Assembly (NCBI GenBank): GCA_963719225.1
Contig: CAVRAY010000001.1
Span: 224,001-288,000 of the forward strand
From: Thermoanaerobaculia bacterium
GTDB lineage: Bacteria > Acidobacteriota > Thermoanaerobaculia > UBA5066
Reading direction: 5' to 3'
DNA length: 64,000 bases
A program made the position numbers and the translations under genes. This document shows positions 19,481 to 58,137 of this stretch, in pieces (positions within the stretch are counted from its first letter, which is position 1; each line of letters starts with the position of its first letter). Below the pieces are notes generated by a model. The model was given only the letters and a program-made list of their open reading frames with translations. It ran no database searches and was not told the DNA's origin.

Positions 19481-20503
19481 TTACGTGACGAGACTTTTCA
19501 ACAAAGCGACGGCGCCCTCGAGGTCGGAGGCGCCGTCCAGCCGCATCCCGCCCGCGCCGGCCCAGGCGCGCGCGACGGCGCCGGATCCACCGTCGACGCT
19601 TTCCTGGGGAATCTCGCCTTTCGTGAACTCCTCGACGAACTCCGGACCCGCGAGCTGGACGAGACGCGCTGGTCCGGGAACGCGCGGTCCGAGGAGCAGC
19701 GTCGAAACGCGTCGGGCCGCGCGCGCTTCGGGACGCGAGGCCGCGAAGAGATCGATGCGGCGCTTCACCTCGCCGCCCGAGAACCCGGCCTCGGTGCCCG
19801 ACTGGAGGCCCAGAAGAGCCGCGCTGTCCTCGCGCAGCGTCAGCTCGCGGACCGAGGAGGCGAGCTCGTCCGGATCGGCGCGCGAGACGAGCACGCTCTC
19901 GTCTCCGAGCACGCCGAGCCCGGCGGCGTGCGCGGCGGCCACGAGCGTGGACTTTCCGGCGTCCGAGGCCCCGCGCACCACGACGGCGCCCTTCGGACCC
20001 GTGACGGCGCCCGCGTGCAGCGCGCGCCAGCCGCGGCGCGCGAGCAGGATCGCGGCGGGGGCCTCGAGGAGCGTGCGGGCGAGGAAAGAACGAAGAGAAG
20101 AAGAGGAAGATTTCTTAGAAAGGGGAAGATAAGAAAGAAGAGAAGCCGCGATGCGCGCGTCGACGCGCGCTCGCTCGAGATTGATCGTGACTTCCAGGGC
20201 GCCGGGGACCGCGCAGCGAAATTCCGACGCCTCGTGCACCCACTGCAGTCTTTCTTCGAGTGAAAGAATGGGGTCGGCGTCGCGGCGCGGCGAGCTGGGA
20301 GCCGCCACACCGCCCTTTTTCGCGCCTTCCAAGAAATCTTCGTCTTCGTCCCGCGTAACCTCGATCGCGATCGCCGCGCGCGCATGGCCCGTGGGCGCCG
20401 GCGCCCAGAGCTTCTCCGCCAGCTCGAAGAGGAGCGGCTCTTTCGACGTGAGCGCCACGACATCTCCGGGCGGCCCAAAGAGCCGTGTCGTTCCGTCCGC
20501 CAT
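19481..20503 (-). CDS. HPr kinase-related P-loop kinase
   Basis: LHAGAV....GAVVVRGASDAGKSTL followed by VLGDE, the HprK-like signature; start uncertain. Confidence 0.8.
   Translation of the reverse strand: MADGTTRLFGPPGDVVALTSKEPLLFELAEKLWAPAPTGHARAAIAIEVTRDEDEDFLEGAKKGGVAAPSSPRRDADPILSLEERLQWVHEASEFRCAVPGALEVTINLERARVDARIAASLLSYLPLSKKSSSSSLRSFLARTLLEAPAAILLARRGWRALHAGAVTGPKGAVVVRGASDAGKSTLVAAAHAAGLGVLGDESVLVSRADPDELASSVRELTLREDSAALLGLQSGTEAGFSGGEVKRRIDLFAASRPEARAARRVSTLLLGPRVPGPARLVQLAGPEFVEEFTKGEIPQESVDGGSGAVARAWAGAGGMRLDGASDLEGAVALLKSLVT
20106..20126. repeat. Dispersed AT-rich motif GAAGATTTCTTAGAAAGGGGA
   Basis: Identical 21-mer at 25053-25073; core also at 51182, 58042 and inverted at 25099, 58116. 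Confidence 0.75.
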
Positions 20504-20730
20504 GTGCCGCAGCTTGCCACGGAGAGCCCGACGACTCCGGAAGTCCGGCTCAGGGCGGCCATGGGCCGTTCTGCCGGGAAGGCGTAACCTTTCACGATTC
20601 CGTGCGTCATACCGGGATGCTCTCGGCCCCCGGCTGCGTGCGGGCCTTTTCGAGCGCCGTCCTGGCCCTGGAGTTGCTCGGGAGAGAAGGAACCGTGTGT
20701 CCTCGGTCAATTCGGCGTGGAGGTTCTCCG

Positions 20731-23700
20731 ATGAGTCAGCTTCGAGATCGTCGTTCCGGCGCTCGCGGGTGGAACCGCGGCCTCTCCCTGGTGCCGCTTC
20801 TCGTGCTCGCTCTCCTGGCCGGCGGTGCACGTGCCGGGGAGATCCGCGGGCGGCTTCTCGTCAACGATCGCGCGGACAGGCCCGCGGGCGGCCTCACGGT
20901 CAGCGCCGTTCCCTGGGAGACGCCGGGCGAAGAAGCGCGCCGCGCCATGAAAGGAGGCGACCCCCCGAAGCCGATCGCGTCGACCGTCACCGGAGCCGAC
21001 GGCTCCTTCGTCCTGGCCGTTCCCAGCGATCCCGCGGCTGAAAAGACGTTTCGCGTGAGAGTCGAGGGCCCGGGCGTCGTGCCCGTTCTCTTCGAGGACG
21101 TCTACGACGCGTCCGAGACCGGAGATCTCGGCGAGCACACGCTGCCGCACGGCGAGAAGCTCACGGGCATCGCGGTGGACACGTCCGGGAACCCGCTCGC
21201 GGGAGCGGAAGTCTCCCTCGAGGCGGGGGTTGCGGGCGGCGACGACCTCGCCTTCCGGGTCGTGACGCGGAAGGTCGTGACGAAAGAGGACGGGAGGTTC
21301 CAGTTCGAAGAAGCGAGCGCGCTGGGCAACCAGATCACGATCGAGAAGGCGGGCCTCGCGCCCGCGCTCCAGACCGGCCTCAAATCAGGCGCGATTCCGA
21401 GGCCCATCGCGGTCGTCGCGGGCGACCCGGTCACCGGCGTCGTCCTCGGCGCCGGCCGGAAACCCGTGGGAGGCGCCCTCGTGCGGCTGGAGAGCGTCAA
21501 GGCGATGACGCGCTGGGTCGAGACGGATCCCGAGGGACGCTTCACGATCCCGCACGCGCCCGACGGCCGCGGCGCGATCGTCGTGGACGCCGGCGACGGC
21601 GGCTGGGGACGCAAGCCCGACGTCAAGCTCCCTCTCGGCGAGGGCCGATCGCTCGTAATCACCCTCGCTCTGCCGGCCTCGCTCGACGGCAAGGTCGTCG
21701 ACGACAAGTCGGGGCGCATCGTGCCGCGCGCGAAGGTCCTGGCGAAGGCGAACGGCTTCGCGCGCCTCGTGCGCACGGGCCCGGACGGGACGTACCACCT
21801 GAAGGGCATCCCGCCGCAGACCTATCGCCTCACCGTCGACGAGCCACGATACGTGCCGTGGGCGAGGCCGGATCTCGCGCTCGCGCCCGGCGAGGCGAAG
21901 CGCCTCGACATCGCCGTGACGCTCGGAGCCTCGCTCGCCGGGAGGGTCGTGGACGAGAACGGCGCCCCCGTGGCGAGCGCGCGCGGAACCCTCATGCGCG
22001 GAGGCGAGAACGCCCTCCAGGGCATCCGCCGGATGATGCGCGCCGGAGGAGAGGTCACCGCCTTCCGCACGCGCTCCGACGGGACGTTCCGGGCCGCGCG
22101 CCTCGCCCCCGGCGACAACCAGCGCCTCTTCGTGAGCCATGCGGACTTCGAGCGCGCGACGCTCGCCGGACTGTCCCTGCCCTCCGGCGGCACGAAGGGC
22201 GACGTGGCCGTCGTGATGCGCCGGGGCGCCACGATCTCGGGCATCGTGAAGGACACGAGCGACCAGCCGGTCGCGGACGTCGAGGTGCAGGTCGATCCAT
22301 CCGTGAGCTTTCGCGCTGGAGCGGGCGGCATGGTCGCGAACTTCGCGCGCCTCGGCGGCCCGAGCACGCGCCCCAGGACGAAGACAACCGCCGACGGCAG
22401 GTTCCGGATCAAGGGCATGGCCGTGGGCGAGTACGCGCTCCAGATCAGCAAGCCGGGGTTCGCGAGCGAGCGCGTCGACCCCGTGAAGGTGACGGAGAAA
22501 GGCGCCGATCCCGTCGCGGTGACCCTCGGGCCGGGAGCGAGCATTTCGGGGATCGTGCGCCGGAAGAGCGGGGAAGGGGCCGAGGGCTTCTTCGTGCGCG
22601 TCGGCGCCGGCGGCCGCGGGGCGGCCGGTGGAGGCGGTCCGCTCGCCGGAACCGGCACGCCGCTCCCGACCGGCGCGGACGGAACGTTCGTCCTCGACGG
22701 CCTGAAACCGGGTCACGTTTACGACCTCTCCGTCTTCGGCGGGGCAGGCATCGGTCCGCAGAAGCGCGGCGTCGTGGCGCCGGCCTCGAACGTCGACATC
22801 CTGGTTTCCGGCACCGGGCGGATTTCAGGCACCGCGCTCGACGCGCGCTCAGGCCAGCCCCTCAAGAGCTTCTCGGTTTCCTTCGAGCCCGACCGCGGCG
22901 GCGGCACGGTCATCCGTCTCGTTGCCCGCGGCGCGGGTGCCCGTACCGGCATCGGCCAGAAGCGCAATTTCAACACCGACGATGGCGCGTTCACGCTCGA
23001 GGACGTGCCCGCTGGAACCTGGACGGTCGTCGTCGAGGCGAAGGGCTATCTCGAGGCGCGCGTCGCGAACCTCGTGGTCGAGGAGAGTGGCTCCAAGGAC
23101 GGCGTCGAGATTCGCGCGACCCCCGGAGTCGTCCTCAAGGGACGGGTCTCGGACGCGCGCACCGGCCGGCCCGTCGCGAACGCGAGCATCACGCACGAGC
23201 CGGCCGGGGGCGGCGGGCCGGGCGGCTTCGGAGGCCGTATGACCGTGCTCGCGGGGCTCGACGGCGGCGACGACATCACGAGCGACGCGGAAGGCAACTT
23301 CGAGATCGAGGGAATCTCCGTCGGGCGCCTCAAGGTCACCGCGAAGAGCCCGGACTACACGGACGGCAGCGAGGTGGCGGACGTCAAGGAGACCGGCGGC
23401 ACCGTCGAGATCAAGCTCACGACGGGCGGATCGGCGGGCGGCGTCGTCGTGGCCGGCAGCCAGCCGCTCGCGAACGCCCAGGTCTCCCTCGCGGTCGCGG
23501 GCGACGCGGGCTTCGGCCGCATCCTCGGGGGCGGGCAGACCACCACGACGGACGCGACGGGCCGCTTCCGGTTCGACCACCTCGGGGCCGGCCGCTACAG
23601 CGTCTCGGCGGGGACGAGCGGAAAGTCGAGCAACCTCTCGGAGTTCGTCCTGCAGGCGGGCGACTCGAAGAACGACCTCGTGCTGTCGCTCACCTCGGGC

Positions 23701-25014: not shown

Positions 25015-25052
25015 GGAGACGAGAGAAAGAAAGATTCTTGGAAAGAGAATTA

Positions 25053-25108
25053 GAAGATTTCTTAGAAAGGGGATTTGGCCGATTCTTCCTTATTACCCTT
25101 CTAAGAAA
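25053..25108. repeat. Intergenic inverted pair of the TTTCTTAGAA motif
   Basis: TTTCTTAGAA 25058-25067 and TTCTAAGAAA 25099-25108. Confidence 0.75.
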
Positions 25109-25152
25109 GCGCCGAGACCCGCTGCTTCGAAGTCAGCTATTAAGATCAGCGC

Positions 25153-27150: not shown

Positions 27151-27186
27151 CGCAACTTCAGAGCCTCGGCGCCGTATAGTTCCCCC

Positions 27187-28521: not shown

Positions 28522-28547
28522 AATCGGTCCGGCCTGACGGAGGCTCC

Positions 28548-29879: not shown

Positions 29880-29974
29880 CTCGGCTCCGAGCGCTCGCGG
29901 GGCTGGAATGCCACCGCGGGCGCATAATCGTGCAACCAGATCGCGCAAGATTCCGCGTCTTTCAGGAGTAGAGG

Positions 29975-30781: not shown

Positions 30782-30856
30782 CGTCTCGAAGCCGGCTTCT
30801 GGCGCCGATCTTGCGACATTCGAGCTGCGAGGTTCGAACTCGCAGGACGGTGACTC

Positions 30857-31552: not shown

Positions 31553-31736
31553 AGCGGCGTCGACCAGGCGATTACAGGACCGCGCCGATGTGCGCTATAC
31601 TTCTTGGGTTCGCCTTCCTCGTACTGACGGAGCGGACCGAAGACCGAAAGGTCCCCGTCGACCATATTACGTACTTCTCCCCACCATCTGCCAGCCGCAC
31701 GCGTCCCTCGGACGACGTGTTTACCAAAGGATCCCC

Positions 31737-32027
<291 letters not shown>

Positions 32028-32054
32028 GTCCCTCGAGAATCAGTTTTTCTCGAC

Positions 32055-38944: not shown

Positions 38945-38951
38945 GGGCGTC

Positions 38952-46361: not shown

Positions 46362-46420
46362 CTCTCCTCGGCGCAGGGATTTCGCTTGACTCGTTCCCTT
46401 TGGAAGCCGGATACTCGCGA

Positions 46421-46454
46421 GTGGAAAAAAGTGGCTAGTGGTGGCGTCTTGTGG
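46421..46454 (+). promoter_or_regulatory. MraZ-binding direct repeats
   Basis: GTGG at 46421, 46431, 46441 and 46451 (10-bp period), downstream of TTGACT...GATACT promoter-like boxes and upstream of mraZ. Confidence 0.8.
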
Positions 46455-46507
46455 ATCCGAAGGGATTCCCGCGGCGCCGACGCGGGAATTCGTCCCAGAG
46501 GAAGATT

Positions 46508-46954
46508 ATGGACCGCCTTCGAGGCAGCGCGGAAACGACGGTGGACGAGAAGGGCCGTTTCAAGGTCCCGTCCGTCTTCCGGGCGCCGATCGAGGAGACG
46601 TTCGGACCCGAGTTCTTCCTGACGTCCATTTCCGGTGTCGACGTTCTGATCTTTCCGATGCCCGTCTGGAACGCGCTCGAGGAAAAGCTCGCGGCGATGC
46701 CCGCGATCCACCGGGCGAAGGCGAAGTTCCAGGAGCGCTTCAACACGTACGGGCAGGTGGCGCGCATGGACGCGCAGGGCCGGCTGCTCGTGCCGTCGCT
46801 CCTGCGTGAGGTCTCCGCGCTCGAGGGCGATGCGCTCGTCCTCGGGCAGACCGACCACCTCAAGCTCGTCGACCGCACGAAACATCTCAAGAGCCTGCGC
46901 TCGACCACGATCACGGATGAGGACTACGACGAACTCGCACGCCATCTCGTCTGA
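46508..46954 (+). CDS. mraZ: Division/cell wall cluster repressor MraZ
   Basis: VDEKGRFKVP, MDAQGRLLVP. Confidence 0.93.
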   Translation: MDRLRGSAETTVDEKGRFKVPSVFRAPIEETFGPEFFLTSISGVDVLIFPMPVWNALEEKLAAMPAIHRAKAKFQERFNTYGQVARMDAQGRLLVPSLLREVSALEGDALVLGQTDHLKLVDRTKHLKSLRSTTITDEDYDELARHLV

Positions 46955-46960
46955 CGCGCC

Positions 46961-47932
46961 ATGGCCGACGACGGCGCGATCCACGTCCCGGTGCTGCTCC
47001 GGGAGGTCGTCGCGGCGCTTCGCCCGGAGCGGGGCGGCGTCTACGTCGACGCGACGCTCGGCCTCGGAGGCCATGCGCGGGCGCTCCTCGAGGCCTCGCC
47101 CGACGTGCGCGTCGTGGGCATCGACCGCGATCCGGAAGCCCTGCGCCTCGCGAAAGACCGCCTCGCGGCGTTCGGCACGCGCGTCGTCATCGTGGAAGGT
47201 CGCCACGAGGACGTCGCCCGGCATCTCGACCGTCTCGGCCTCGCGCGTGTCGACGGGATCCTCGCCGATCTCGGTGTCTCGACGCTGCAGCTCGATCGGG
47301 CCGAGCGCGGGTTTTCGTTCATGAAGGACGGTCCGCTCGACATGCGCATGGGCGCCGACGGGCCGACGGCCGCCGACCTCGTGGCGACGGCTTCACGTGA
47401 AGAGCTGACGCGGATTTTCCGCGAATGGGGGGAGGAGCGCATGGCGGGACCGATCGCCCGGACGGTTGTGGAAGCTCGGAAGACGTCTCCGATCCGAACG
47501 ACCGGCGAGATGAGGCGACTCGTGCTGAAGGTGCTCGGACCGCGGCGCGAGAAACACAAGGATCCCGCGACTCGCGTTTTCCAGGCGCTGCGGATCGCGA
47601 CGAATCACGAGCTCGTCGAGCTCGAGCGGTTTCTCGACGATGCGATCGCACGCCTCGCGCTCGGCGCACGGCTCACCGTCCTCTCGTATCACTCTCTCGA
47701 AGATCGGATCGTCAAGCGCGCGTTCCAGCGACACACGGCGGGCTGCACGTGCCCGCCGTCGTTTCCCGTGTGCGTGTGCTCGCGGCGCCGCGTCATGGCG
47801 CTCGTCACGCGTAAAGCCGTTCGGCCGTCGCTCGCCGAGCTGGGCGAAAACCCCAGGGCGCGCTCGGCGCGGATGCGTGTGCTCGAGCGCGTCGCCGAGG
47901 ATGGCGCAAGCCCGGCCACGCCGCAGGGGTAG
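46961..47932 (+). CDS. rsmH: 16S rRNA m4C1402 methyltransferase
   Basis: HVPVLL, DATLGLGGH, DLGVS, RGFSF, PLDMRM, FQALRI, YHSLEDRIVK, NPRARSA. Confidence 0.97.
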   Translation: MADDGAIHVPVLLREVVAALRPERGGVYVDATLGLGGHARALLEASPDVRVVGIDRDPEALRLAKDRLAAFGTRVVIVEGRHEDVARHLDRLGLARVDGILADLGVSTLQLDRAERGFSFMKDGPLDMRMGADGPTAADLVATASREELTRIFREWGEERMAGPIARTVVEARKTSPIRTTGEMRRLVLKVLGPRREKHKDPATRVFQALRIATNHELVELERFLDDAIARLALGARLTVLSYHSLEDRIVKRAFQRHTAGCTCPPSFPVCVCSRRRVMALVTRKAVRPSLAELGENPRARSARMRVLERVAEDGASPATPQG

Positions 47933-47941
47933 GCCCAGCTC

Positions 47942-48367
47942 ATGGCGTACGCGGTCCGCCGCCCCGTCGAAAACGTCTATCTCGTGCGGGAACGCGACCG
48001 GCGGCGGACGCGCGAGCTCGTCGCGCTGTTCCTGGCGGCCGTGCCGCCGGCAACCGTTCTCTTCCTCGCCATCTGGGCGAACCTCGAGACGGTTCGGCTC
48101 GGATACCAGCTCGCCACGCTCGCGCGGATGCGCGAGACGCTGCTCGAGAGAAGGCACCTGCTCGAGATGGATCGTGCCCAGGCGGTGGCGCTCCAGCGCG
48201 TGGAGCGAATCGCGCGCGGCACGCTCGGTCTCGTGCCGCCCACGCTCGAACAGGTCATCCTCGTGAAAGACTCGGCGCTCGCGTCGGCGCTCGCGTCGCC
48301 GCCTGCGGCCGCCCCGGAACGGACCGCCCGGCCGCCGGCGCTGCCGCCCGGAAAGGAGACGCCCTGA
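47942..48367 (+). CDS. ftsL: Cell division protein FtsL
   Basis: TM plus coiled coil, RVERIAR..LGL; lies between rsmH and ftsI. Confidence 0.8.
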   Translation: MAYAVRRPVENVYLVRERDRRRTRELVALFLAAVPPATVLFLAIWANLETVRLGYQLATLARMRETLLERRHLLEMDRAQAVALQRVERIARGTLGLVPPTLEQVILVKDSALASALASPPAAAPERTARPPALPPGKETP

Positions 48368-48372
48368 GCGCG

Positions 48373-50418
48373 GTGTCGCGCCCGGACCGCCGGGCCCTTT
48401 TCCTGCTCGCGGGGGTCGGCCTCTGGATCCTCGTCCTCTTCGTTCGGCTCGTGGACCTGCAGGTGCTCAGGCGCGAGGAGTTCCAGCGCCGCGCCCGCAG
48501 GCAGCAGGAGCGCACGGTCGAGCTCGCCCCGCGTCGCGGCGTCATCCGCGACGCGGAAGGCACGCTTCTGGCCGTGAACGCGCGGGCCGAGTCGGTCTTC
48601 GCGATTCCCTCCGACGTGTCGGACGCCGATCAGGAAGCCGCCCTGCTGGCGCCGCTCCTGAAGCACCCGGCGAAGGAGCTCGCGAAGAAGCTCGCGAGCC
48701 CGGACCGCGACTTCATCTGGCTTTCGCGACGCGTGAGCGATCCGGTCGCCGCCCGCGTGCGCGCGCTCGTCGCCGAAAAGCGCCTCCCGGGCATCCAGCT
48801 CGTGGCCGAGTCGACGCGGCGCTATCCCGAGGGAGCGCTCGCGGCCGCCGTGCTCGGTTACGTCGGGACCGACAACCAGGGGCTCGCGGGCCTCGAGTAT
48901 CGCTTCGACGCCGACGTGCGGGGAAAGCCCGCGCGCGTGACGCTCCTGCGCGACGCGGCACAGCGTCCCTACGCGACACGCGCTCGCGAAGGCGGCGAGG
49001 CTCCACGCGAGGGATACGAGGGAGCGCGCCTGACGCTCACGATCCGCACGTCCATCCAGCACGCGGCGGAGCGCGAGCTCGCGAAGGCCATGTCGGAATT
49101 CCATGCGCGCGGGGCTTCCGCCGTCGTTCTCGATCCGGCCACGGGCGCGATTCTCGCGCTCGCCTCGTTCCCGACGTTCGATCCGAACCGCTACGGAGAG
49201 GTCGACGCGGAGGCGAGGCGGTGCCGGCCGCTCGCGGACGTCTACGAGCCGGGCTCGACGTTCAAGATCGTGGCGGCTACGGCAGCGCTCGACTCCGGGG
49301 CGATCGCCCTGGACGACCCGATCGATTGCGGCGGCGGCACGCTCACGATCGGGTCGAACACGATTCACGAACACGGTGGAAAGGGCTGGAGCACGCTCAC
49401 GATCGGCGACATCCTCACGCACTCCTCGAACATCGGGATCGCGCACGTCGCCATGACGCTCGGGCGCTCTTCCTTCTACAAGTCCGTTCGGGCGTTCGGG
49501 TTCGGCGAGAAGACGGGCGTCGAGCTGGAGGGAGAGACGTCCGGCATTCTCGCGGACACGTCGGGCTGGAGCGCTCTCACGCTCCCGACGATGGCGTTCG
49601 GCCAGGAGATCGGCGTCACCGTCCTCCAGATGGCGCGCGCATACGCCGCGATCGCGAACGGGGGCGTTCTTCCGCCGCTCCACCTCGTGGACTCGATCCG
49701 GGATTCGAATCAGAGCCCGGATGCCGCGAATCGAAGAATCGAGCGGCCCGCTCCGCGGCGCCTCATGAGCGAGGACACGGCACGCCGGCTGCGGATCCTC
49801 CTCGGGAGGGTCGTCGAGATGGGAACGGGAAAAGCCGCCGCGATTCCGGGCTATACGGCCGCGGGCAAGACGGGCACGGCGCAGAAAGCGGTCCCCGGAG
49901 CGGGATATTCGAAGGACCGTTACGTCGCGTCGTTCATCGGCTTCGCGCCCGCCGACCGGCCGCGCGTCGTGATCGCGGTCGTCGTGGACGAGCCGAAGGG
50001 AAAGACGTATGGCGCCGAGGTCGCGGCGCCGGTTTTCTCCGCCATCGGAGCGGACGTCCTCGCGATTCTGCGGGAGCCGCCCGCTTCGCTCGAGGCGACG
50101 CGTCCGTCCATCCTCACCGCGGACCTCGGTGCGGGCGCGGCGGCCGTCTCGCTCAGCGCGCGCCTGAATGCCGACGACCTCGTGCCCGCGTCGAACCGGA
50201 CCGAGAGGGCCGGCGAGAACGAGGACCGCGTGCCGGACGTCTCGGGAAAGAGCGCCCGCGACGCCGTCCGGCTCCTCGCGGCACGCGGTCTTTCGGCGCG
50301 GCTCTCGGGAACGGGGTTCGTGGTCTCGCAGGATCCGCCGGCGGGATCGCCTGCCGAGCGGGGCGGGGCCTGCGCGCTTTCGCTCGCGCAGCCGGTCTCT
50401 CAGGGAGACACGCCGTGA
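48373..50418 (+). CDS. ftsI: Penicillin-binding protein 3 with PASTA domain
   Basis: RRG.I.D, RRYP, YEPGSTFK (SxxK), SSN, KTGTAQK, PASTA. Confidence 0.93.
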   Translation: MSRPDRRALFLLAGVGLWILVLFVRLVDLQVLRREEFQRRARRQQERTVELAPRRGVIRDAEGTLLAVNARAESVFAIPSDVSDADQEAALLAPLLKHPAKELAKKLASPDRDFIWLSRRVSDPVAARVRALVAEKRLPGIQLVAESTRRYPEGALAAAVLGYVGTDNQGLAGLEYRFDADVRGKPARVTLLRDAAQRPYATRAREGGEAPREGYEGARLTLTIRTSIQHAAERELAKAMSEFHARGASAVVLDPATGAILALASFPTFDPNRYGEVDAEARRCRPLADVYEPGSTFKIVAATAALDSGAIALDDPIDCGGGTLTIGSNTIHEHGGKGWSTLTIGDILTHSSNIGIAHVAMTLGRSSFYKSVRAFGFGEKTGVELEGETSGILADTSGWSALTLPTMAFGQEIGVTVLQMARAYAAIANGGVLPPLHLVDSIRDSNQSPDAANRRIERPAPRRLMSEDTARRLRILLGRVVEMGTGKAAAIPGYTAAGKTGTAQKAVPGAGYSKDRYVASFIGFAPADRPRVVIAVVVDEPKGKTYGAEVAAPVFSAIGADVLAILREPPASLEATRPSILTADLGAGAAAVSLSARLNADDLVPASNRTERAGENEDRVPDVSGKSARDAVRLLAARGLSARLSGTGFVVSQDPPAGSPAERGGACALSLAQPVSQGDTP

Positions 50419-52016
50419 GGCTCTCGGCGCTCGCCGTCGAATTTCCGCACCGGCGCGCCGGCGCCCCGGGCGACCCCGAAGTCCTCGCCGTCACGCACGA
50501 CTCGCGCGCCGCGAAGAGCGGCACGCTGTTCGCTGCATTGCCCGGGCTGAAGATCGACGGGCGCCGCTTCGTGGTCGATGCGGTCTCGCGCGGCGCCGTC
50601 GCGGCTCTCGGACTCGCGCCCGCGCCCGACGCCACGGCGGTGCCTTATCTCGAGGTCGAGAATCCCCGGCGCTCCGCGGGCCTCGTCGCTTCGCTGCTCG
50701 CGGGACGGCCGTCCGAACGGCTCGTGATGGCGGGCGTGACGGGCACGAGCGGCAAGACGACGACGACGTACCTCCTCGACGGCCTGCTCGCCGCCCGGCA
50801 TCCGAAGCGCGGCTTCTTCGGGACGATCGTCTACCGCGCCGGCGGCGCGGAGATCCCGGCGCCGCATACGACGCCGGAAGCCACCGAGCTGCAGCCGATG
50901 CTCGCGGGGCTCGTCTCGGAAGGCGGCACGGCCGCGATCCTGGAGTGCTCGTCGCACGCGCTCGTCCTCGAGCGCCTCGCGGGGTGCACGTTCGACGTGG
51001 CGATCTACCTCAACCTCTCGCGCGACCACCTCGACTTCCACCGCGACATGGACGACTACTTCGAGGCGAAGTCGCGCCTCTTTTCCATGCTCAAGCCGGG
51101 GGGGAAGGCGGTCGTCAATCTCGGAGACGCGTATGGGCGGAACCTCGCGAACAGGCTTCCTTCGAAGAGCACGATCGGATTTTTCTTAGAAGGGGAAGAG
51201 GGGAAAGCGCGCGCCGGGGAAGCCGAGCGCGCGAGCGAAGGTCTCTTCGCGACAGTCATCGGGCGCGCGACGCTCGGGCTCGCGGGGACGCATCTCGAGG
51301 TCGAGATCAAAGCCCCATTCACCTTCGAAGAAAAATACAACGGTTCAAAAACCCCACTGAAGCTTCAGAAGACGGACCAGGCGGAAATCCTATTAACAAT
51401 AAATTCCCCTCTTCTCGGCCGCTCGAATGCCGAAAACCTGCTGGCCTCCGCCGCCGCCGGCATCGCGTTGGGGTTCTCGCCGTCCGAGATCAAGACGGGT
51501 CTCGAGTCCGTGACGACGATTCCCGGCCGGCTCGAAGCCGTGCCGAACACGCGCGGCTTCACCGTCCTCGTGGACTATGCGCACAAGCCCGCCGCCCTCG
51601 AGGGCGTGCTCCGGACGGTGAGGCCGATCGCGGAGGCGGGGGGCGGGCGCCTCATCGCCGTCTTCGGATGCGGCGGCGACCGCGACAAGGGGAAGCGCCC
51701 GGAGATGGGCCGCATCGCGGCGCTCCTCGCCGACGAGGTCGTCGTCACGTCCGACAACCCTCGTTCGGAAGAGCCGGAGGCGATCCTGCGGGACGTGCGC
51801 GCGGGCGTCGAGGCGGCGGGGGTCACCGCGCATTACGTGGCGGACCGCCGCGCCGCCCTCGCCGAGGCCTTCCTCCTCGCGCGCAAGGGTGACGTCGTCC
51901 TCGTCGCCGGGAAAGGACACGAGACGAGCCAGGTCGTGGGCAGTCGCGAGCTGCCGTTCGACGACCGTCTCGTCGCGAAGGAGCTCCTCGAAAGGCTCGA
52001 GTCGGCGGCGCGATGA
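50415..52016 (+). CDS. murE: UDP-MurNAc-tripeptide synthetase
   Basis: GVTGTSGKTT, TTPE, E.SSHAL, NLSRDHLDFH, PGRLE, DYAH.P, FGCGGDRD, DNPR, AGKGHE. Confidence 0.95.
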   Translation: MRLSALAVEFPHRRAGAPGDPEVLAVTHDSRAAKSGTLFAALPGLKIDGRRFVVDAVSRGAVAALGLAPAPDATAVPYLEVENPRRSAGLVASLLAGRPSERLVMAGVTGTSGKTTTTYLLDGLLAARHPKRGFFGTIVYRAGGAEIPAPHTTPEATELQPMLAGLVSEGGTAAILECSSHALVLERLAGCTFDVAIYLNLSRDHLDFHRDMDDYFEAKSRLFSMLKPGGKAVVNLGDAYGRNLANRLPSKSTIGFFLEGEEGKARAGEAERASEGLFATVIGRATLGLAGTHLEVEIKAPFTFEEKYNGSKTPLKLQKTDQAEILLTINSPLLGRSNAENLLASAAAGIALGFSPSEIKTGLESVTTIPGRLEAVPNTRGFTVLVDYAHKPAALEGVLRTVRPIAEAGGGRLIAVFGCGGDRDKGKRPEMGRIAALLADEVVVTSDNPRSEEPEAILRDVRAGVEAAGVTAHYVADRRAALAEAFLLARKGDVVLVAGKGHETSQVVGSRELPFDDRLVAKELLERLESAAR

Positions 52017-53098
52017 TCCTCTGGCTGCTCTACCCGCTGCACGGCCGGTTGCCGCTCTTCAACGTCTTTCGCTACATCACCTTTCGGGCCGCGAACGCGG
52101 CTCTCATGGCTCTCCTCCTCTCCATCTTTCTCGGGCCCGCCCTCATCCGCTGGCTTCGCGCGAGGCAGATCGGGCAGTCCATCCGGGAGGAAGGGCCGAA
52201 GGGCCACCAGGTGAAGGCGGGCACGCCCACGATGGGCGGCGTCCTCATCAACCTGGCGATCGTCGTGCCCACGCTCGTCTTCGCCGACCTGTCGAATCGC
52301 TACGTGTGGGTCGCTCTCGTCGCGACCGTCCTCGCCATGCTGATCGGCATCGGAGACGACTGGCGCAAGGTGTCGCACAAGAACAACCGGGGTCTTTCGG
52401 GCAGGCAGAAGCTGGCCCTGCAGACCGTGATCGGGCTCGGAGTGGCGTGGGCCTCGGTGAAGCTCTTCGACGCACGCGCGGACGCCACGCAGGTCGCCCT
52501 GCCCTTTCTGAAGAACGTCCATCCGGACCTCGGCGTTTTCTACATCCTCCTGGCGACGATCGTCGTCGTGGGCTCGTCGAACGCCGTGAACCTCACGGAT
52601 GGCCTCGACGGGCTCGCGATCGGCGCGACGCTCGTCGCGTCGGCCACGTTCGCGATCCTCGCGTACATCGCCGGCAACGCCAAGGCCGCGAACTACCTCC
52701 TCGTGCCGTCCGTTCCGGGCACGGGCGAGCTTGCCGTTTTCTGCGCGGCCATCGTTGGAGCGTCGCTCGGATTCCTCTGGTTCAATTCCCATCCCGCCGA
52801 GGTCTTCATGGGCGACACGGGCTCCCTCGCTCTCGGAGCGGCGCTCGGAACGGTCGCCGTGCTCATCAAGCAGGAGATCCTCCTCGTCCTCGTGGGCGGG
52901 CTGTTCGTCGTCGAGGCCGCCTCGGTGATCCTGCAGGTCGGATCCTTCCAGCTGCGCGGCAAGCGCATCTTCAAGATGGCGCCGCTCCATCACCACTTCG
53001 AGCTCTCCGGATGGCCGGAGTCGAAGGTCATCATCCGGTTCTGGATCGTGGCGATCCTCTTCGCGCTCTTCGCGCTTTCGACGCTGAAGCTCAGATGA
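52013..53098 (+). CDS. mraY: Phospho-N-acetylmuramoyl-pentapeptide transferase
   Basis: KAGTPTMGG, NAVNLTDGLDGL, FMGDTGSL, MAPLHHHFE. Confidence 0.97.
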   Translation: MILWLLYPLHGRLPLFNVFRYITFRAANAALMALLLSIFLGPALIRWLRARQIGQSIREEGPKGHQVKAGTPTMGGVLINLAIVVPTLVFADLSNRYVWVALVATVLAMLIGIGDDWRKVSHKNNRGLSGRQKLALQTVIGLGVAWASVKLFDARADATQVALPFLKNVHPDLGVFYILLATIVVVGSSNAVNLTDGLDGLAIGATLVASATFAILAYIAGNAKAANYLLVPSVPGTGELAVFCAAIVGASLGFLWFNSHPAEVFMGDTGSLALGAALGTVAVLIKQEILLVLVGGLFVVEAASVILQVGSFQLRGKRIFKMAPLHHHFELSGWPESKVIIRFWIVAILFALFALSTLKLR

Positions 53099-54498
53099 CG
53101 CTCTCCCTTGGACCCGACCTGCCCGAGATCCGCTCCGCCGTGGTCTTCGGCCTCGCCCGATCGGGCCGCGCCGCCGTGGCGGCTCTGGCCGAGCGGGGCG
53201 TCGAGGTGACCGGGACGGACGCGAAGGCCGATCTCGAGGGCCTCGCCGAACGTTCCGGCGTCCGCTACGTCCTCGGAGGGCATCCCGAGTCCCTCCTCGA
53301 GGACATCGACCTCGTCGTCGTGTCGCCGGGAATTCCGCTGACTCTGCCCGTGTTCGACGCGGCACGGGCGCGCGCGCTGCCCGTGGTGGCGGAGATCGAG
53401 CTGGCCTCGCGGCTCCTGCCGGGCGTCATCGTCGGCGTGACGGGCACGAACGGAAAGTCGACGACGACGGCGCTCGCGGCCGCGCTCCTCAGGAACGCCG
53501 GCCATTACGCGGTGGCCTGCGGAAACTTCGGAACTCCCTGGATCCATTTCGCGACCAAAGAGGGAGCGAACGGGAGCGGCACCGTGCCGCGCACCTGGGT
53601 CGTCGAGCTGTCGTCCTTCCAGCTCGAAGGCATCCGGCGGTTCGCGCCCGACGTGGCGGTCCATCTGAACCTCACGCCCGATCATCTCGACCGCTACCGG
53701 TCGATGGACGACTACGGAGCGGCAAAGGCGCGCATCTTCGAGAATCAGCGCGAGGCTCAGATCGCGGTCCTGAATGACGACGACCCTCTCGTCGCTCGCG
53801 TGAAGACCCGCGCGCGGCGCCTCGCGTTCTCGCGGCGCGGCTCGCCAGGGCTCGGCGCCTGGCTCGCAGACGACCTCCTTCTCGCGGACGTGACGGGCAG
53901 GGGCCCTCGGATCGTGGCGAGGCGGTCGGATCTCGCGCTGCCGGGCGCGCACAACGTCGAGAACGCGCTCGCGGCGCTCGCGGCGACGCTGCCGCTCGGC
54001 GTCACGCCCGAAACCGCCGTCGAGACGCTGCGCACCTTCCGCGGCCTCCCGCATCGCACGGCGCTCGTGCGCACGGTGAACGGCGTCGGCTACTGGAACG
54101 ATTCGAAGGGCACGAACGTGGACGCGACGCTGAAGAGCCTCGAGGGGTTCGACGACCACAGCGTGCACCTCATCCTCGGCGGGAAAGACAAGGGCGACGA
54201 TTTCGCCCGGCTGGGTCCGCTCGCGTTGCGGAAGGCGCGGCGCATCCTCGCCATCGGCAAGGCGGCGCCCGCGATCGCCCAGGCGCTCGGAAGCCTGCCC
54301 GGGGTCTCCCTCCAGGTCGTCGGGACGCTCGAGAAGGCGCTCGAGGACGCGTCCTCCCACGCGGAGCCCGGCGATGTGGTGCTCCTGTCGCCCGCGTGCG
54401 CATCCTTCGACCAGTTCAAGAACTTCGAGCATCGCGGCGAGGTCTTCGAGTCGCTCGTGAGGGCGCTCCCAGAGCGGGCCGCGGCGGGCAGGCGCTGA
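53095..54498 (+). CDS. murD: UDP-MurNAc-L-Ala-D-Glu ligase
   Basis: GLARSG, SPGIP, GTNGKSTT, ELSSFQL, DHLDRY, NDSKGTN, LSPACASFDQF. Confidence 0.96.
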   Translation: MTLSLGPDLPEIRSAVVFGLARSGRAAVAALAERGVEVTGTDAKADLEGLAERSGVRYVLGGHPESLLEDIDLVVVSPGIPLTLPVFDAARARALPVVAEIELASRLLPGVIVGVTGTNGKSTTTALAAALLRNAGHYAVACGNFGTPWIHFATKEGANGSGTVPRTWVVELSSFQLEGIRRFAPDVAVHLNLTPDHLDRYRSMDDYGAAKARIFENQREAQIAVLNDDDPLVARVKTRARRLAFSRRGSPGLGAWLADDLLLADVTGRGPRIVARRSDLALPGAHNVENALAALAATLPLGVTPETAVETLRTFRGLPHRTALVRTVNGVGYWNDSKGTNVDATLKSLEGFDDHSVHLILGGKDKGDDFARLGPLALRKARRILAIGKAAPAIAQALGSLPGVSLQVVGTLEKALEDASSHAEPGDVVLLSPACASFDQFKNFEHRGEVFESLVRALPERAAAGRR

Positions 54499-55604
54499 TG
54501 GCACGGAAGCTCGCTTTCGACCGGCTGCTCTTCGGATCCGTGGTGCTCCTCGTGTTCCTGGGCCTCTTGATGATCTACAGCGCGTCGGCGATGCAGATCT
54601 ACCTGCCGACGTCCGCGGCTCCCGCCGGCGCCTATTTCTTCGTGATCAAGCAGACGATCGCGGTCGTCATCGGCGGAGTCCTCGCGTTCCTCGCGATGTC
54701 GATGGACTACCGCCGCCTGAACGACCCGCGCCTCATCGGAGTCTCTCTGGTCCTCCTCGCCGGATCGCTCGTGGGGGTGCTTCTCCGGGCTCCCGTCAAC
54801 GGGGCGCGACGCTGGCTGTCGTTCGGCATCGTCAAGTCGATCCAGCCGTCGGAGTTCGCGAAGATCGGCCTCGTCATCGCGCTCGCGGCGCTGCTGGCGC
54901 GGCGGGAGGGAGAGGTCACGCATCCGACGCGGACCCTGCTGCCGATCCTCGGGCTCGTCTCGGTGTTCGCGGGGCTCGTCCTTCTCGAGCCCGACTTCGG
55001 CACCGCGCTGACCTATTTCGTGATCGCCGGCGCGATGCTCTTCTTCGCCGGCCTCCCCTTGAAGTACTTTCTCGGGTCGGCGCTGCTCCTCGTGCCGACG
55101 CTCTCGGCCTTCGTTCTGGCGGCGCAATACCGGCGCGACCGGCTCATGGCGTTCCTCCATCCGGAGGCGGATCCCCTCGGGAAGGGCTTTCACGCGATCC
55201 AGTCGCTCATCGCCGTCGGCACGGGCGGCGTCACGGGCCTCGGCCTGGGGCACGGCAAGCAGAAGCTCTTCTTTCTTCCCTACCCCTACACGGACTTCAT
55301 CTACGCGATCGTGGGCGAGGAGCTGGGGCTCATCGGGTGTGCCGCCGTCCTCGCCCTGTTCGGCTTCGTCTTCGCGCGGGGCGTCCGGGCCGCGGCGAAC
55401 GCGCCCGACTCCTTCGGGCGGCTTCTCGGGATCGGGTTCTCGGTGATGATCGTCGTGCAGGCGCTCGTCAACATCTCCGTCGTCCTGTCCCTCCTCCCCA
55501 CCAAGGGAATCCCGCTGCCGTTCCTCTCGTACGGCGGGTCGGCGCTCTTCGTCGACCTCCTGGCGGTCGGGATCCTCCTCAACCTCTCGCAGCACGCGTC
55601 ATGA
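54498..55604 (+). CDS. ftsW: Peptidoglycan polymerase FtsW
   Basis: GARRWL, QPSEFAK, EPDFG, TDFI, GEELG, PTKGIPLPFLSYGGS. Confidence 0.95.
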   Translation: MARKLAFDRLLFGSVVLLVFLGLLMIYSASAMQIYLPTSAAPAGAYFFVIKQTIAVVIGGVLAFLAMSMDYRRLNDPRLIGVSLVLLAGSLVGVLLRAPVNGARRWLSFGIVKSIQPSEFAKIGLVIALAALLARREGEVTHPTRTLLPILGLVSVFAGLVLLEPDFGTALTYFVIAGAMLFFAGLPLKYFLGSALLLVPTLSAFVLAAQYRRDRLMAFLHPEADPLGKGFHAIQSLIAVGTGGVTGLGLGHGKQKLFFLPYPYTDFIYAIVGEELGLIGCAAVLALFGFVFARGVRAAANAPDSFGRLLGIGFSVMIVVQALVNISVVLSLLPTKGIPLPFLSYGGSALFVDLLAVGILLNLSQHAS

Positions 55605-56695
55605 CGGAGCGCGGCTTTCTCATCGCGGGGGGAGGGACGGGGGGGCACGTCTTCCCCGCGCTCGCCCTGGCCGGCGAGATCCGGCGCCGGCGGCCGGGTG
55701 CGCCCGTCGTGTTCGTGGGCACGGCGCGCGGGCTCGAGACGACCCTCGTGCCGAAGGCGGGCTTCCCTCTGGAGCTCGTTCGCGCGAAGGGCCTCGTCGG
55801 AAAGGGATGGCGCGCGCGTCTCGAGGGCCTTCTCGCGCTGCCGCTGGCGTTCGTCGACTCGCTGCGTCTTCTCGCGGTCCACGATCCCCGCGCCGTCGTG
55901 GGCGTCGGAGGGTATGCCTCGGGCCCGCTCGTCGCCACGGCGTGGGCGCGCCGCGTGCCGACGTTGATTCACGAGCAGAACGCCGTTCCCGGCCTCACGA
56001 ACCGCCTCCTCGCGCGCGTGGCGAAACGCATCGCGGTCGGCACCGCGCGCACAGCCGCGGCGCTGCCCGGAGCGATCGTGACGGGGAACCCGGTGCGAAA
56101 GGACTTCTTCGAGATTCCATCTCTCGTCTCACGGGAAAAGCACCGGCGGCTGAGGGTCCTCGTCGTCGGCGGCAGCCAGGGAGCGCAGATCCTGAATTCT
56201 CTCGTGCCTCCCGCGCTCGCCAGGGTCGAGGCGGCCGGCATCGCCTTCGACGTCGTGCATCAGGCCGGAAAGAACCGCGCCGGCGAGGTCGTCACGTCCT
56301 ACGCGAAGCTCGGCCTTTCTGCCGACCGCGCGTTCGTCCACGAGTTTCTCGACGACATCTCCGCTGCGTACGCCGCCGCGGATCTCGTCGTCGCGCGGGC
56401 GGGCGCGATGACGATCGCCGAGATCGCGGCGGCCGGCCGCCCGGCGCTCCTCGTGCCGTTCGCCGCCGCGACGCATGCTCACCAGGAAGCCAATGCCCGC
56501 GCGCTCGAATCGAGCGGCGCGGCCGTCGTTCTCACGGAAGCCGAGGCGACGGACGAAACGCTCGGGGCGGCGCTCGCCGGACTCCTCGGCGACCCGTTGC
56601 GTCTCCTCGAGATGGGCGAGGCGGCGCGGCGCTCGGCCCTTCCGGACGCGGCCTCACGACTGTGCGACCTGCTCTTCGAGGCGGAAGCGGCATGA
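55601..56695 (+). CDS. murG: Lipid II GlcNAc transferase
   Basis: GGGTGGHVFP, GGYAS, HEQN, GNPVR, GGSQGA, RAGA.T, HQ..NA. Confidence 0.96.
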   Translation: MTERGFLIAGGGTGGHVFPALALAGEIRRRRPGAPVVFVGTARGLETTLVPKAGFPLELVRAKGLVGKGWRARLEGLLALPLAFVDSLRLLAVHDPRAVVGVGGYASGPLVATAWARRVPTLIHEQNAVPGLTNRLLARVAKRIAVGTARTAAALPGAIVTGNPVRKDFFEIPSLVSREKHRRLRVLVVGGSQGAQILNSLVPPALARVEAAGIAFDVVHQAGKNRAGEVVTSYAKLGLSADRAFVHEFLDDISAAYAAADLVVARAGAMTIAEIAAAGRPALLVPFAAATHAHQEANARALESSGAAVVLTEAEATDETLGAALAGLLGDPLRLLEMGEAARRSALPDAASRLCDLLFEAEAA

Positions 56696-58137
56696 ATTTT
56701 CTTCGCGTGAAGCGCCTCCACTTCGTCGGGATCGGGGGCATCGGGATGAGCGGCCTCGCCGAGCTCCTGAAGAGCGTCGGGCTCGAGGTGACGGGCTCGG
56801 ATCTCTCGATCTCGGAGACGGCGCTCCGCCTCAAGAGCCTCGGCATCGAGGTGCACCAGGGCCACCGGGCCGAGAACACGACCGGCGCGGACGTCGTCAT
56901 CTACTCGAGCGCGGTCAACGAGGGAAACCCCGAGGTCGTCGCCGCGCGGGCCGCCGGCCTTCCCGTCATCAAGCGGGCCGAGATGCTCGCCGAGGTCATG
57001 CGGGTAAAGCGGGGAATCGCGATCTCGGGCGCGCACGGCAAGACCACGACGACGTCCATGACGGGAGCGATCCTGATGGCGGCGGGGCTCGACCCCACGA
57101 TCATCGTGGGCGGCCGCATGCGCGAAGTCGGCACCGCGCGGCTGGGACACGGGGAATACCTCGTCGCCGAAGCCGACGAGTTCGACCGGTCGTTCCTGGC
57201 GCTCTCGCCGATGCTCGCGGTCGTGAACAACATCGACCTCGAGCACCTCGACACCTATCGCGACCTCGCGGACATCCAGGAGACGTTCGCGCGTTTCGCG
57301 CGAAGCGTGCCTTTTTTCGGCGCGGTGATCCTCGGCCTGGACGACCCGAACGTCCAGGAGATCCGGCCTCTCATCTCCCGCCGCGTCGTGACTTTCGGCC
57401 TCACGCCTCAGGCCGACGTCACCGTGCGCGACCTGGTTCTGGAGCGGGCGGGCTCGCGGTTCGTCGCGACCGCGGGCCGCGACTTCATGGGGGCCGTGAG
57501 GCTCAAGGTGCCGGGGCTCCACAACGTGAAGAACGCGCTCGCCGCGCTCGCCGTCGCGCGCGAGCTGTCGATTCCGTTCGGAATCGCCTCCCGCGCGCTC
57601 GAGGAATTCGCGGGCGTGATCCGGCGATTCGAGAAGAAGGGCGAGACGGGCGGAATCGTCGTGGTCGACGACTACGCGCACCACCCGACCGAGGTGGCCG
57701 CGACGCTCGCGGCGGCCCGCCAGTCGTATCCGGACCGGCGCGTCGTCGCGCTCTTCCAGCCTCACCTCTACTCCCGCACGAAGGACTTCGCGGCGAACTT
57801 CGGCGCGGTGTTCCTGAACGCGGACGTCCTCCTCGTGGCTCCCGTCTACGGCTCGCGGGAAGCGCCGCGCGAAGGCGTGACGGGCGCGCTCGTGGCCGAC
57901 GCGGCGACGGCGCGCGGGCACCGTAACGCGCGGTTCATCGCGGACCGGGCGGACATCGGACGCGCCCTCGAAGAAGAAATGAAAGACGGAGACCTTCTGC
58001 TCACCATGGGGGCAGGAGATGTAAATCAATTCGGAGAAGAGTTTCTTAGAAGGAAAGAGAGCACAGGCAACGTCACCGCGCAGCCGGCCGCAGCCGCGCA
58101 ACCGCTACACATACCTTCTAAGAAATCCGAACTATGA
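56692..58137 (+). CDS. murC: UDP-MurNAc-L-Ala ligase
   Basis: HFVGIGGIGMSG, GAHGKTTT, EADEFD, DDYAHHPTE, FQPH.YSRT. Confidence 0.96.
   Translation: MNFLRVKRLHFVGIGGIGMSGLAELLKSVGLEVTGSDLSISETALRLKSLGIEVHQGHRAENTTGADVVIYSSAVNEGNPEVVAARAAGLPVIKRAEMLAEVMRVKRGIAISGAHGKTTTTSMTGAILMAAGLDPTIIVGGRMREVGTARLGHGEYLVAEADEFDRSFLALSPMLAVVNNIDLEHLDTYRDLADIQETFARFARSVPFFGAVILGLDDPNVQEIRPLISRRVVTFGLTPQADVTVRDLVLERAGSRFVATAGRDFMGAVRLKVPGLHNVKNALAALAVARELSIPFGIASRALEEFAGVIRRFEKKGETGGIVVVDDYAHHPTEVAATLAAARQSYPDRRVVALFQPHLYSRTKDFAANFGAVFLNADVLLVAPVYGSREAPREGVTGALVADAATARGHRNARFIADRADIGRALEEEMKDGDLLLTMGAGDVNQFGEEFLRRKESTGNVTAQPAAAAQPLHIPSKKSEL
58042..58125. repeat. Perfect 12-bp inverted repeat pair in the murC 3' extension
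   Basis: TTTCTTAGAAGG 58042-58053 and CCTTCTAAGAAA 58114-58125. Confidence 0.8.

Follow-up and report, generated by a model that had tools for sequence, protein, structure and literature searches.

A paired, directional DNA motif in a Thermoanaerobaculia genus that may serve chromosome organisation

To our knowledge, very few signal motifs that act genome-wide have been described in bacteria (DUS/USS, Chi, KOPS, matS, NBS/SBS, REP and HIP1), and finding the reader of each of them opened a new area. Here we describe a motif that resembles several of these systems in part. The matS sites are palindromic, number in the tens around dif and are not described as facing pairs, unlike the motif, which forms about 460 clusters over the whole chromosome. 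KOPS and AIMS are directional motifs whose density rises toward the terminus with a strand bias along each replichore; ours is also denser toward the terminus, but it is strand-balanced because its sites are paired. The term AIMS stands for architecture-imparting sequences (PMC5993296). With matS, which is read by the protein MatP and linked to decatenation in the account of PMC11564523, the motif shares a higher density toward the terminus, although its sites lie everywhere on the chromosome, and probably a protein reader.

The uptake signals DUS of Neisseria and USS of Pasteurellaceae are, like the motif, short and lineage-specific, present in hundreds of copies, located in core genes and formed in place (PMC2397512). 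However, as that paper presents it, a DUS acts singly and is paired only as a close terminator (≤21 nt), whereas sites of our motif nearly always face a partner about 70–250 bp away and follow an origin–terminus gradient. REP/BIME units and REPIN doublets are also inverted doublets with a preferred spacing, and BIME-2 elements are gyrase sites according to PMC6379681, but these units are extragenic, hairpin-forming and homologous; the motif lies mostly in genes, forms no hairpin and encloses unrelated spacers, and its host genome G000 has no RAYT. Rickettsia palindromic elements (RPEs) likewise extend unrelated housekeeping proteins by in-frame peptide (PMC10969869), but they are inserted homologous units of ~150 bp, whereas the two ends of a motif pair form independently, mainly through substitutions, on either side of ancestral sequence. 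The parS and NBS sites of ParB and Noc share TTTC...GAAA arms and are described in PMC7383237 as 16-bp palindromes with a 4-base centre; the motif is asymmetric with a 3-base centre. Finally, IHF, a protein that bends and bridges DNA, recognises long, asymmetric sites (PMC8421141).

An initial annotation of the window (the whole 64-kb stretch of DNA analysed here) had reported six exact copies of TTTCTTAGAA, all of which are in place; 0 of 100 dinucleotide shuffles gave one. A 21-mer said to recur at 20106 and 25053 is identical at both, the one-mismatch partners at 20325 and 51322 were confirmed, and the matrix scores of the looser copies near 7683 (−), 8352 (−) and 25039 (+) are those of full sites. 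The peptides attributed to the copies (EDFLE, FFLEG, EEFLRR and PLSKKSSSSS) are in frame. The claim that copies are embedded in coding sequence does not hold for the cluster at 25039/25063/25103, which is intergenic (25015–25152). Two sites, at 8261 (+) and 20256 (+), had been overlooked, and weak ones lie at 7547 (+) and 47421 (+). Sites and host genes are as follows.

7542–7553, plus strand: weak site (score 13.4), facing 7677–7688 at 136 bp
7677–7688, minus strand: site core (score 29.0), reads L-F-E-E; N-terminus of nucleotidyltransferase ORF 7622–8647
8256–8267, plus strand: site core (score 21.7), within the same ORF, facing 8346–8357 at 91 bp
8346–8357, minus strand: site core (score 26.0), partner of 8256–8267
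19481–20458, minus strand: HprK-related kinase-like gene with three sites; its TIGR04352 match is weak and falls below the cut-off
20111–20122, plus strand: site core (score 31.7), PLSKKSSSSS on the gene strand
20251–20262, plus strand: site core (score 16.8), facing 20325–20336 at 75 bp
20325–20336, minus strand: site core (score 18.7), reads EDFLEG
25034–25045, plus strand: intergenic site core (score 25.9)
25058–25069, plus strand: intergenic site core (score 31.7)
25097–25108, minus strand: intergenic site core (score 22.2), facing both plus-strand sites, at 40 and 64 bp
50415–52016, plus strand: murE, with a facing pair 141 bp apart
51182–51193, plus strand: site core (score 32.2), reads GFFLEGEEG; ancestral codons
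51322–51333, minus strand: site core (score 29.6), reads PFTFEE; in a genus-specific insertion
56692–58137, plus strand: murC, with a lineage-variable C-terminal extension and a facing pair 73 bp apart
58042–58053, plus strand: site core (score 28.8), on ancestral codons (GEEFLR) at the MurC end
58114–58125, minus strand: site core (score 25.4), reads PSKKSE in the added MurC tail

The nucleotidyltransferase ORF matches Pfam PF14907 from residue 5. Genome-wide, the motif is a directional site of ~25 bp consisting of a purine-rich flank, TTTCTTNGAARG and a purine-rich tail; its matrix is asymmetric and the site is no symmetric palindrome, contrary to the palindromic core first proposed. We found ~825 matrix matches in the Thermoanaerobaculia genome G000 against 14 in shuffled DNA. 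The excess of copies noted in GC-rich DNA extends to the whole genome, with 197 exact copies of TTTCTTAGAA against 15 expected under an order-5 Markov model, and the codon-aware null suggested as a check gave the same answer: predicted genes hold 113 exact copies, compared with a mean of 0.65 and a maximum of 2 in 20 synonymous-codon shuffles. Predicted genes contain 570 of the 825 sites, and the hosts include housekeeping genes recognised by sequence (tRNA synthetases, mur genes, ligA and uvrA). The strands are used almost equally (390 plus and 366 minus on C1), and internal in-gene sites show no preference for the direction of transcription (251 sense, 237 antisense). TTA makes up 0.18% of Leu codons overall but 53 of 470 in Phe-Leu-Glu, and reading frames at sites avoid stops. 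A literature search found no paper describing the motif.

The inverted pairs noted in the window reflect a facing arrangement that holds throughout G000, where 264 of 295 neighbours in the facing, plus/minus order lie within 300 bp of each other, against 11 of 295 in the minus/plus order; 800 kb of a second species gave 90 facing pairs against 6. Among 184 apparent singles (108 on the lagging strand, 76 on the leading), 78 have a weaker facing site and 8 have one behind. Pair spacing has a sharp onset at 68–73 bp and a peak at 75–79 bp, with 19 of the 264 close pairs in G000 below 65 bp, and the modal spacing in 21 independent metagenome loci is 76 bp. The spacers are unrelated to each other in 254 of 257 cases, and we looked for a conserved central motif in them and found none. 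Partner sites resemble each other no more than randomly chosen sites do (identity at variable positions 0.413, permuted 0.414 ± 0.009). The spacing shows weak helical phasing (Rayleigh z 5.4, jitter p 0.016), dominated by one peak, and no 10.5-bp periodicity inside pairs was significant.

The motif is abundant in the genus, sparse in its sister genus and at background level elsewhere. The strict pair pattern occurs in 29/29 genomes of the genus, 5/8 of the sister genus and 0/26 others, with none in the control. De novo searches for an alternative paired-motif 'dialect', which covered 400 kb each of G527 and G449 plus 190 kb of outgroups, found none; the top words were codon artefacts. One outlier within the phylum, G419 (57 copies, control 5), proved to carry a multi-copy repeat with the same flanks at 10/12 loci; another genome, G128, has 35 copies against 11 in the control. 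A viral scan returned 34 single matches, all at 30–45% GC, and 17 pair matches, 16 of them at 43% GC or less, which we read as chance. Shares in sequencing runs were small, and we therefore claim no habitat.

Mapping of the sites relative to origin and terminus, which the initial annotation had also suggested, revealed a gradient. With dnaA, parS and dif located in G000, the ~460 clusters, although spread across the whole chromosome, become about fourfold denser from origin to dif (19, 28, 18, 26, 32, 65, 61, 60, 72 and 82 in ten bins; rho 0.89). In genes shared with G019, the density per 100 kb is 3.1 sites for the 63 genes closest to the origin and 22–25 in terminus-near bins. Depletion near the origin is also seen in G019 and G539, the latter with no clear terminus peak. 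The gradient is broad, with site-free gaps of up to 116 kb, and a coding-score proxy for acquired DNA is confounded by the sites themselves; weaker constraint at a distance from the origin could also produce the gradient. The polarised octamers of G000 itself are different, G-rich words.

Comparison with motif-less orthologs suggests that sites arise mostly by substitution on existing codons, though often with in-frame insertions. Ancestral codons underlie 43 of the 68 in-gene sites tested, 35 of which have no insertion nearby, and insertions accompany 15/68 sites versus 19/1024 control positions. In kinase paralogs a pair was built by substitution, with the spacing fixed at 93 bp and no indels. 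MurE has ~39 residues more than a solved MurE, and the stretch between its two sites is ancestral and keeps the same orientation in all 24 loci that span it. Individual pairs are dispensable: only one site is present in three of the 24 murE loci, and in several murC loci there is a single site or no site. Most genus orthologs of the HprK-like gene carry sites in the same three places, with length varying around them, and across the genus the site-bearing segments of murE, murC and this gene vary in length and show tandem duplications. Of 221 alignable sites in G019, 146 have a counterpart in G000 with identical position and orientation, although DNA identity is 78%; the two genomes thus share most sites by descent and are not independent samples.

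None of the candidates tested proved to be the protein reader. MatP (PF06303) was found in 0/5 genomes, while the E. coli control was positive; a histone fold was likewise found in 0/5. SMC, in 5/5 genomes, does not discriminate, and neither the number of HU/IHF copies (mainly 4 in the genus, 3–4 in outgroups) nor ComEC (5/5 genomes, both motif-less outgroups included) tracks the motif. ParB-family matches occur in 41/41 genomes, and a ParB paralog beside dif is also present in motif-less relatives with essentially the same recognition helix. RAYT (Y1) transposase occurs in G000 not at all and in 3/24 relatives, yet in 11/16 motif-less outgroups, and tyrosine recombinases number six in G000 and 6–7 in outgroups. 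Topoisomerase IV and an extra residue in the IHF arm tips seemed genus-specific at first but proved family-wide (topoisomerase IV in 16/16 family genomes); both are shared by genus g236, where the motif is missing. This second type IIA topoisomerase is confined to the family among 150 class genomes. Being wider than the motif, the two are candidate leads only. The IHF consensus is WATCAR-N4-TTR; by eye the motif matrix contains no match to it, although the altered IHF here may differ in specificity. Genes of the motif clade missing from G527, compared in the terminus-near region, included no convincing DNA-binding candidate, and in Pfam searches of five short basic proteins the sole informative match was one Fis-like HTH.

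We give a probability of about 0.5 to the reading that these are paired DNA sites recognised by a protein complex that organises or segregates the chromosome, mainly in its terminus half. A sequence-specific complex would occupy both sites of a facing pair and bend or loop the 70–250 bp between them, and such looping may help to organise or segregate the chromosome. The onset of the spacing could mark the room needed for two complexes, or a limit on DNA bending; in repressor loops that limit is about 60–75 bp. A rigid short loop, however, should show more helical phasing than observed. Selection for the sites would account for the rare TTA codons and for poly-Glu/Ser/Lys insertions in ~300 proteins. 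The earlier proposal of a chromosomal site tolerated inside genes is consistent with every test, with binding by a protein as the part that we infer. The other proposal, an insertable element like the RPEs, did not survive the alignment to ancestral codons; the low-complexity peptide ascribed to it is real, and insertions are enriched at sites, but the peptide is a by-product.

An unlikely, though not negligible, alternative is an uptake or transfer signal under molecular drive, in which pair-bearing DNA is preferentially taken up or transferred and then recombined, with sites building up wherever core genes are permissive. Hundreds of lineage-specific copies, many in housekeeping genes, built in place and in frames that avoid stops, fit this, as do the presence of ComEC and the enrichment of DUS in permissive core-genome parts reported in PMC2397512. 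By the same account, however, one DUS suffices and copies in inverted pairs serve as terminators no more than 21 nt apart, whereas here nearly all sites are paired at ~70 bp or more; ComEC is equally present without the motif, and uptake alone would not predict the gradient. Somewhat less probable still is a signal for breakage or repair, with inward-pointing sites flanking a cut by topoisomerase IV or a two-site nuclease, or acting as two Chi sites that guard a fragile interval. Repair would then cause frequent local duplications and deletions, in line with the length variation and tandem duplications, the excess of insertions at sites and the family-confined topoisomerase. Type III restriction enzymes do use head-to-head two-site logic, but cut sites are usually avoided rather than enriched, the kinase paralogs hold their spacer without indels, the spacer lacks a conserved centre, and topoisomerase IV is wider than the motif.

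The inverted arrangement, the modal spacing and pairs that came with new sequence, such as the murC tail, would suit a miniature mobile element (RPE-, MITE- or REPIN-like) with the motif as its inverted ends, but this is largely refuted by unrelated spacers, partners no more alike than chance, ancestral coding sequence as the spacer in murE and the kinases, ancestral codons under most of the cores tested and the distribution of RAYT. The lack of partner covariation also rules out an origin by template switching, hairpin or MITE. We likewise disfavour, as very improbable, an RNA or single-strand element, whether a stem that closes a loop of 60–200 nt, a mimic of the anti-Shine-Dalgarno sequence or a triplex of the kind formed by H-DNA repeats (BoxC, PIT): every transcript reads the sense copy first and the antisense copy second, the 16S gene of G000 ends in a stretch that CTTAGAAAGG complements, and the flanks are purine-rich, but partners do not covary, no axis of mirror or complementary covariation across the core stands out in 822 sites, the core is identical in first and second copies along the transcript without wobble bias (wobble-compatible mismatches 749 vs 717), the best-conserved TTC mismatches the 16S end, and an Rfam search of the window gave 0 matches. 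Least credible are recombinase sites that invert the spacer within genes. Inverted sites 70–250 bp apart and six tyrosine recombinase genes would allow it, but the murE spacer has one orientation in the 24 loci that span it, the common crossover sequence required for recombination is missing from partners, and recombinase counts are alike in outgroups. In contigs over murE–murC, none of the 15 joints listed (there are 130 further) is a strand-switch joint, though contigs are no test of inversion.

The near-obligate facing pair with a minimum spacing is a grammar absent from all the systems compared here, and its graded phylogenetic series lies within one family. The motif also offers a clear example of a signal at the DNA level that reshapes proteins, explaining the odd low-complexity insertions in the essential enzymes of this lineage. 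More tentatively than the reading favoured above, the pairs may form a new, recently evolved architecture system, in which hundreds of head-to-head pairs, biased to the terminus half, would each nucleate a small loop or two-complex assembly, possibly with an acquired topoisomerase IV and a remodelled IHF. If so, selection on chromosome architecture would have had the strength to change codons and enlarge loops across ~300 proteins, and the rise of the system could be traced from absent (most of the family) through sparse (the sister genus) to abundant (the genus).

We found all six exact copies of the AT-rich 10-mer that the initial annotation had reported in the window at the positions it gave, against 0 in 100 shuffles, and the excess extends across the whole genome (G000; 4.75 Mb in two contigs, C1 and C2, 68% GC). 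There, the exact 10-mer occurs 197 times versus 15 expected under an order-5 Markov model, and 113 times in predicted genes versus a mean of 0.65 over 20 synonymous-codon shuffles. Scanning with an iteratively built site matrix (threshold score 16) returned 825 sites at score ≥16, compared to 14 in a locally shuffled genome. Each site consists of a purine-rich run of ~20 bases, then W-T-T-T-C-T-T-N-G-A-A-R-G, and then a purine-rich tail reaching about +20. The TTC...GAA core is symmetric, as had been proposed, but by the matrix the rest is not, and the site as a whole is directional.

The motif had been described as embedded in coding sequences, and 570 of the 825 sites indeed lie within genes predicted by a purpose-made hexamer caller (4086 genes, 90% coding). 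The 255 intergenic sites are an upper bound because this caller can truncate N-termini; the site at 7683, for instance, lies outside its call and inside a Pfam-supported ORF. Internal in-gene sites (488) are divided between sense (251) and antisense (237) orientations. In all, 304 genes carry a site, and many of the carriers, recognized by eye, are housekeeping genes. Rare codons are forced by the sites: TTA accounts for 0.18% of Leu codons overall versus 53 of 470 in Phe-Leu-Glu.

Inverted pairing, noted earlier for a few copies, proved to be the rule: of 295 +/- neighbors, 264 are within 300 bp of each other, versus 11 of 295 -/+ neighbors. A relative of a second species, G019, had 90 +/- and 6 -/+ neighbors in 800 kb, about a fifth of its genome. 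Even among 184 apparent singles, a weaker facing site was present ahead in 78 and behind in 8. Centre-to-centre spacings below 65 bp are rare (19/264 pairs); the distribution rises at 68–73 bp, peaks at 75–79 and extends into a long tail that includes a bump around 135–140. A metagenome scan for exact pairs only, with permitted spacings of 63–93, produced 42 loci in 21 independent groups, 19 of which match G000 by tblastx, with spacings of 65–87 and a mode of 76. Helical phasing of the spacing was weak (jitter p 0.016), and we found no periodicity inside pairs. In tight pairs (70–82 bp), local G+C peaks ~22 bases inside each site centre, at 0.82–0.94 versus a mean near 0.77; this peak recurs in G000, G019 and the metagenome pairs, with no significant periodicity.

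Partner sites showed no extra likeness, their identity at variable positions being 0.413 versus 0.414 ± 0.009 for random sites. The spacers were unrelated to one another in 254 of 257 cases. Along the transcript, first and second copies share one core and show no wobble bias (227 pairs), and we found no mirror covariation. These results point to sites recognized individually as double-stranded DNA rather than through base pairing.

We compared 68 sites in 34 genes with motif-less orthologs, restricted to orthologs within retrieved sequence. The suggestion that sites fall in lineage-specific insertions held for 15 of the 68 (control positions: 19/1024) but not for the 43 whose cores lie on ancestral codons, 35 of them with no insertion nearby; the other 10 were outside the aligned span. 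Ser/Thr kinase paralogs carry sites in 14 of 16 cases in G000, 9 of 10 in G019 and 0 of 2 in another relative, G449. With one exception, the site-bearing paralogs in G000 and G019 have a pair spaced at a constant 93 bp, and the sequence between the sites aligns without indels to that of paralogs lacking them. For murE, ancestral codons hold the first site and a genus-specific insertion the second, with an ancestral stretch between them; depending on the species, the two are 108 to 228 bp apart, and both losses and tandem duplications occur. The first murC site is built on ancestral GEEFLR codons; the second arrived with a new tail that is missing in some species. Of 221 alignable sites in G019, 146 coincide in position and orientation with a site in G000. 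The ortholog, paralog and G019 comparisons therefore indicate that sites mostly form in place, persist, turn over and draw in-frame insertions.

About ten Ser/Thr kinase paralogs form a tandem array (C1 2293328-2319750), most with the 93-bp pair followed by a poly-Ser insertion. The window's division and cell-wall cluster (46508-61424; murE-mraY-murD-ftsW-murG-murC-ftsQ-ftsA-ftsZ) lacks a murF between murE and mraY, and neither murB nor ddl follows murC; in outgroups, a Mur-ligase match directly follows murE. Named relatives of its MurE are labelled Thermoanaerobaculia or Acidobacteria. Five near-identical flanks beside 1056-bp ORFs (C1 1112868 and 2198888-2209386) are probably an insertion sequence carrying one site near its end.

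The chromosomal landmarks of G000, with dif and parS being what we take to be these elements from sequence patterns, are as follows:

C2 326-334 kb: dnaA and parS, in agreement with the GC-skew switch
C1 2,037.6 kb: dif, in agreement with the GC-skew switch

Site clusters in ten bins from origin to dif number 19, 28, 18, 26, 32, 65, 61, 60, 72 and 82 (rho 0.89), and the rise is present on both arms. For genes shared with G019, site density per 100 kb is 3.1 close to the origin (63 genes) and 22–25 in the two bins near the terminus; too few genes fell in the middle bins. Depletion near the origin also occurs in G019 and in G539, a genome of the sister genus g234 in which a clear terminus peak is not visible. 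On G019 C2, dif (107.8 kb) and the origin (near 838 kb) are only ~730 kb apart on one side of the assembly, and a junction near 680 kb unites segments far apart in G000, reflecting either a large rearrangement or a misassembly.

Copies of TTTCTTNGAARG number 103–446 in all 29 genomes of the genus, 7–65 in all 8 of g234 and 0–4 in 26 other family genomes, these being genome samples in which related genomes are not independent. The strict facing-pair pattern occurs in 29/29, 5/8 and 0/26, respectively (control 0). In two other families of the order, a stricter 12-mer was found in none of the 16 genomes searched. None of 397 other phylum genomes sampled came near the genus level; the highest, G419, owes its 12-mer excess to an unrelated multi-copy repeat (up to ~50 copies by 12-mer count, identical flanks in 10 of 12 loci examined). 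One outgroup genome, G025, is flagged unpublished, and no claim is based on it alone.

Searches of G000 for MatP, histone-fold proteins and RAYT as candidate readers found none. Other candidates map as follows:

C1 2037865-2039524: second parA-parB pair, directly beside dif
C1 1029222-1031546: ParC-like gene
C1 3740723-3742639: ParE-like gene
C1 2066464-2066823: IHF-like subunit gene
C1 1862341-1862679: IHF-like subunit gene

At least one site lies around dif in 19 of 23 genus loci. We rejected the dif-side ParAB as reader since it is order-wide, with an essentially unchanged recognition helix. Its C-terminal domain is 15–29% identical between genus and outgroups and conserved within each group. 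The two unlinked ParC-like and ParE-like genes encode a second type IIA topoisomerase. Both gyrA and the second topoisomerase gene are present in at least 22 of 24 relatives within the genus (G005 has the second type only, G007 one split gene), compared to 1 of 16 outgroups having the latter; in a class sample, the ParC-like gene was found in 16/16 family genomes and only gyrA-level matches (41–43%) in others. Both IHF-like subunits have one extra residue at the tip of the DNA-intercalating arm (NPKR-S-G and NPKR-P-T instead of the usual NPKTG), which may alter bending or specificity. Both subunits agree across the genus except for one canonical copy in G011; this outgroup-like gene is on C99, likely a contaminating contig. 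The insertion extends to other genera of the family and was not seen in families f2 and f3. Genus g236 of the same family has both the second topoisomerase and the arm insertion, yet lacks the motif, and no other paired motif was found in the 400 kb examined; the two are leads, not the answer.

The motif is real, lineage-specific and undescribed in the literature covered. Among the matches listed, titles and abstract openings on motifs in bacterial genomes held no description of it; nor did those on Thermoanaerobaculia repeats and motifs, and no papers turned up on over-represented inverted repeats in Acidobacteriota coding sequences. For all three topics, subscription journals are mostly outside coverage. 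Compared with accounts of DUS (PMC2397512), matS/MatP (PMC11564523), parS/NBS (PMC7383237), Rickettsia palindromic elements (PMC10969869), REP/BIME (PMC6379681), IHF (PMC8421141) and AIMS (PMC5993296), the motif lacks a defining feature of each of the known families tested. Closest in its workings is the DUS/matS class of chromosome signal sequences, from which its paired grammar sets it apart.

Direct tests disfavor a mobile element (unrelated spacers, cores on ancestral codons), RNA structure (no copy asymmetry, no covariation) and inversion (partners no more alike than random sites, spacer orientation constant in 24 murE loci). That an uptake-type drive accounts for the sites we consider unlikely, and that the pairs are a break or repair signal, more unlikely still. 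From the sequence patterns, it is highly probable that a protein reads the double-stranded sites in facing pairs, which is the firmer part of our explanation. The onset of the spacing distribution would then reflect room for two complexes or the bending limit of DNA. By occupying the facing pair, such a protein may play an architectural role, and we put at about 0.5 the probability that protein-read site pairs organize the chromosome or help to segregate it.
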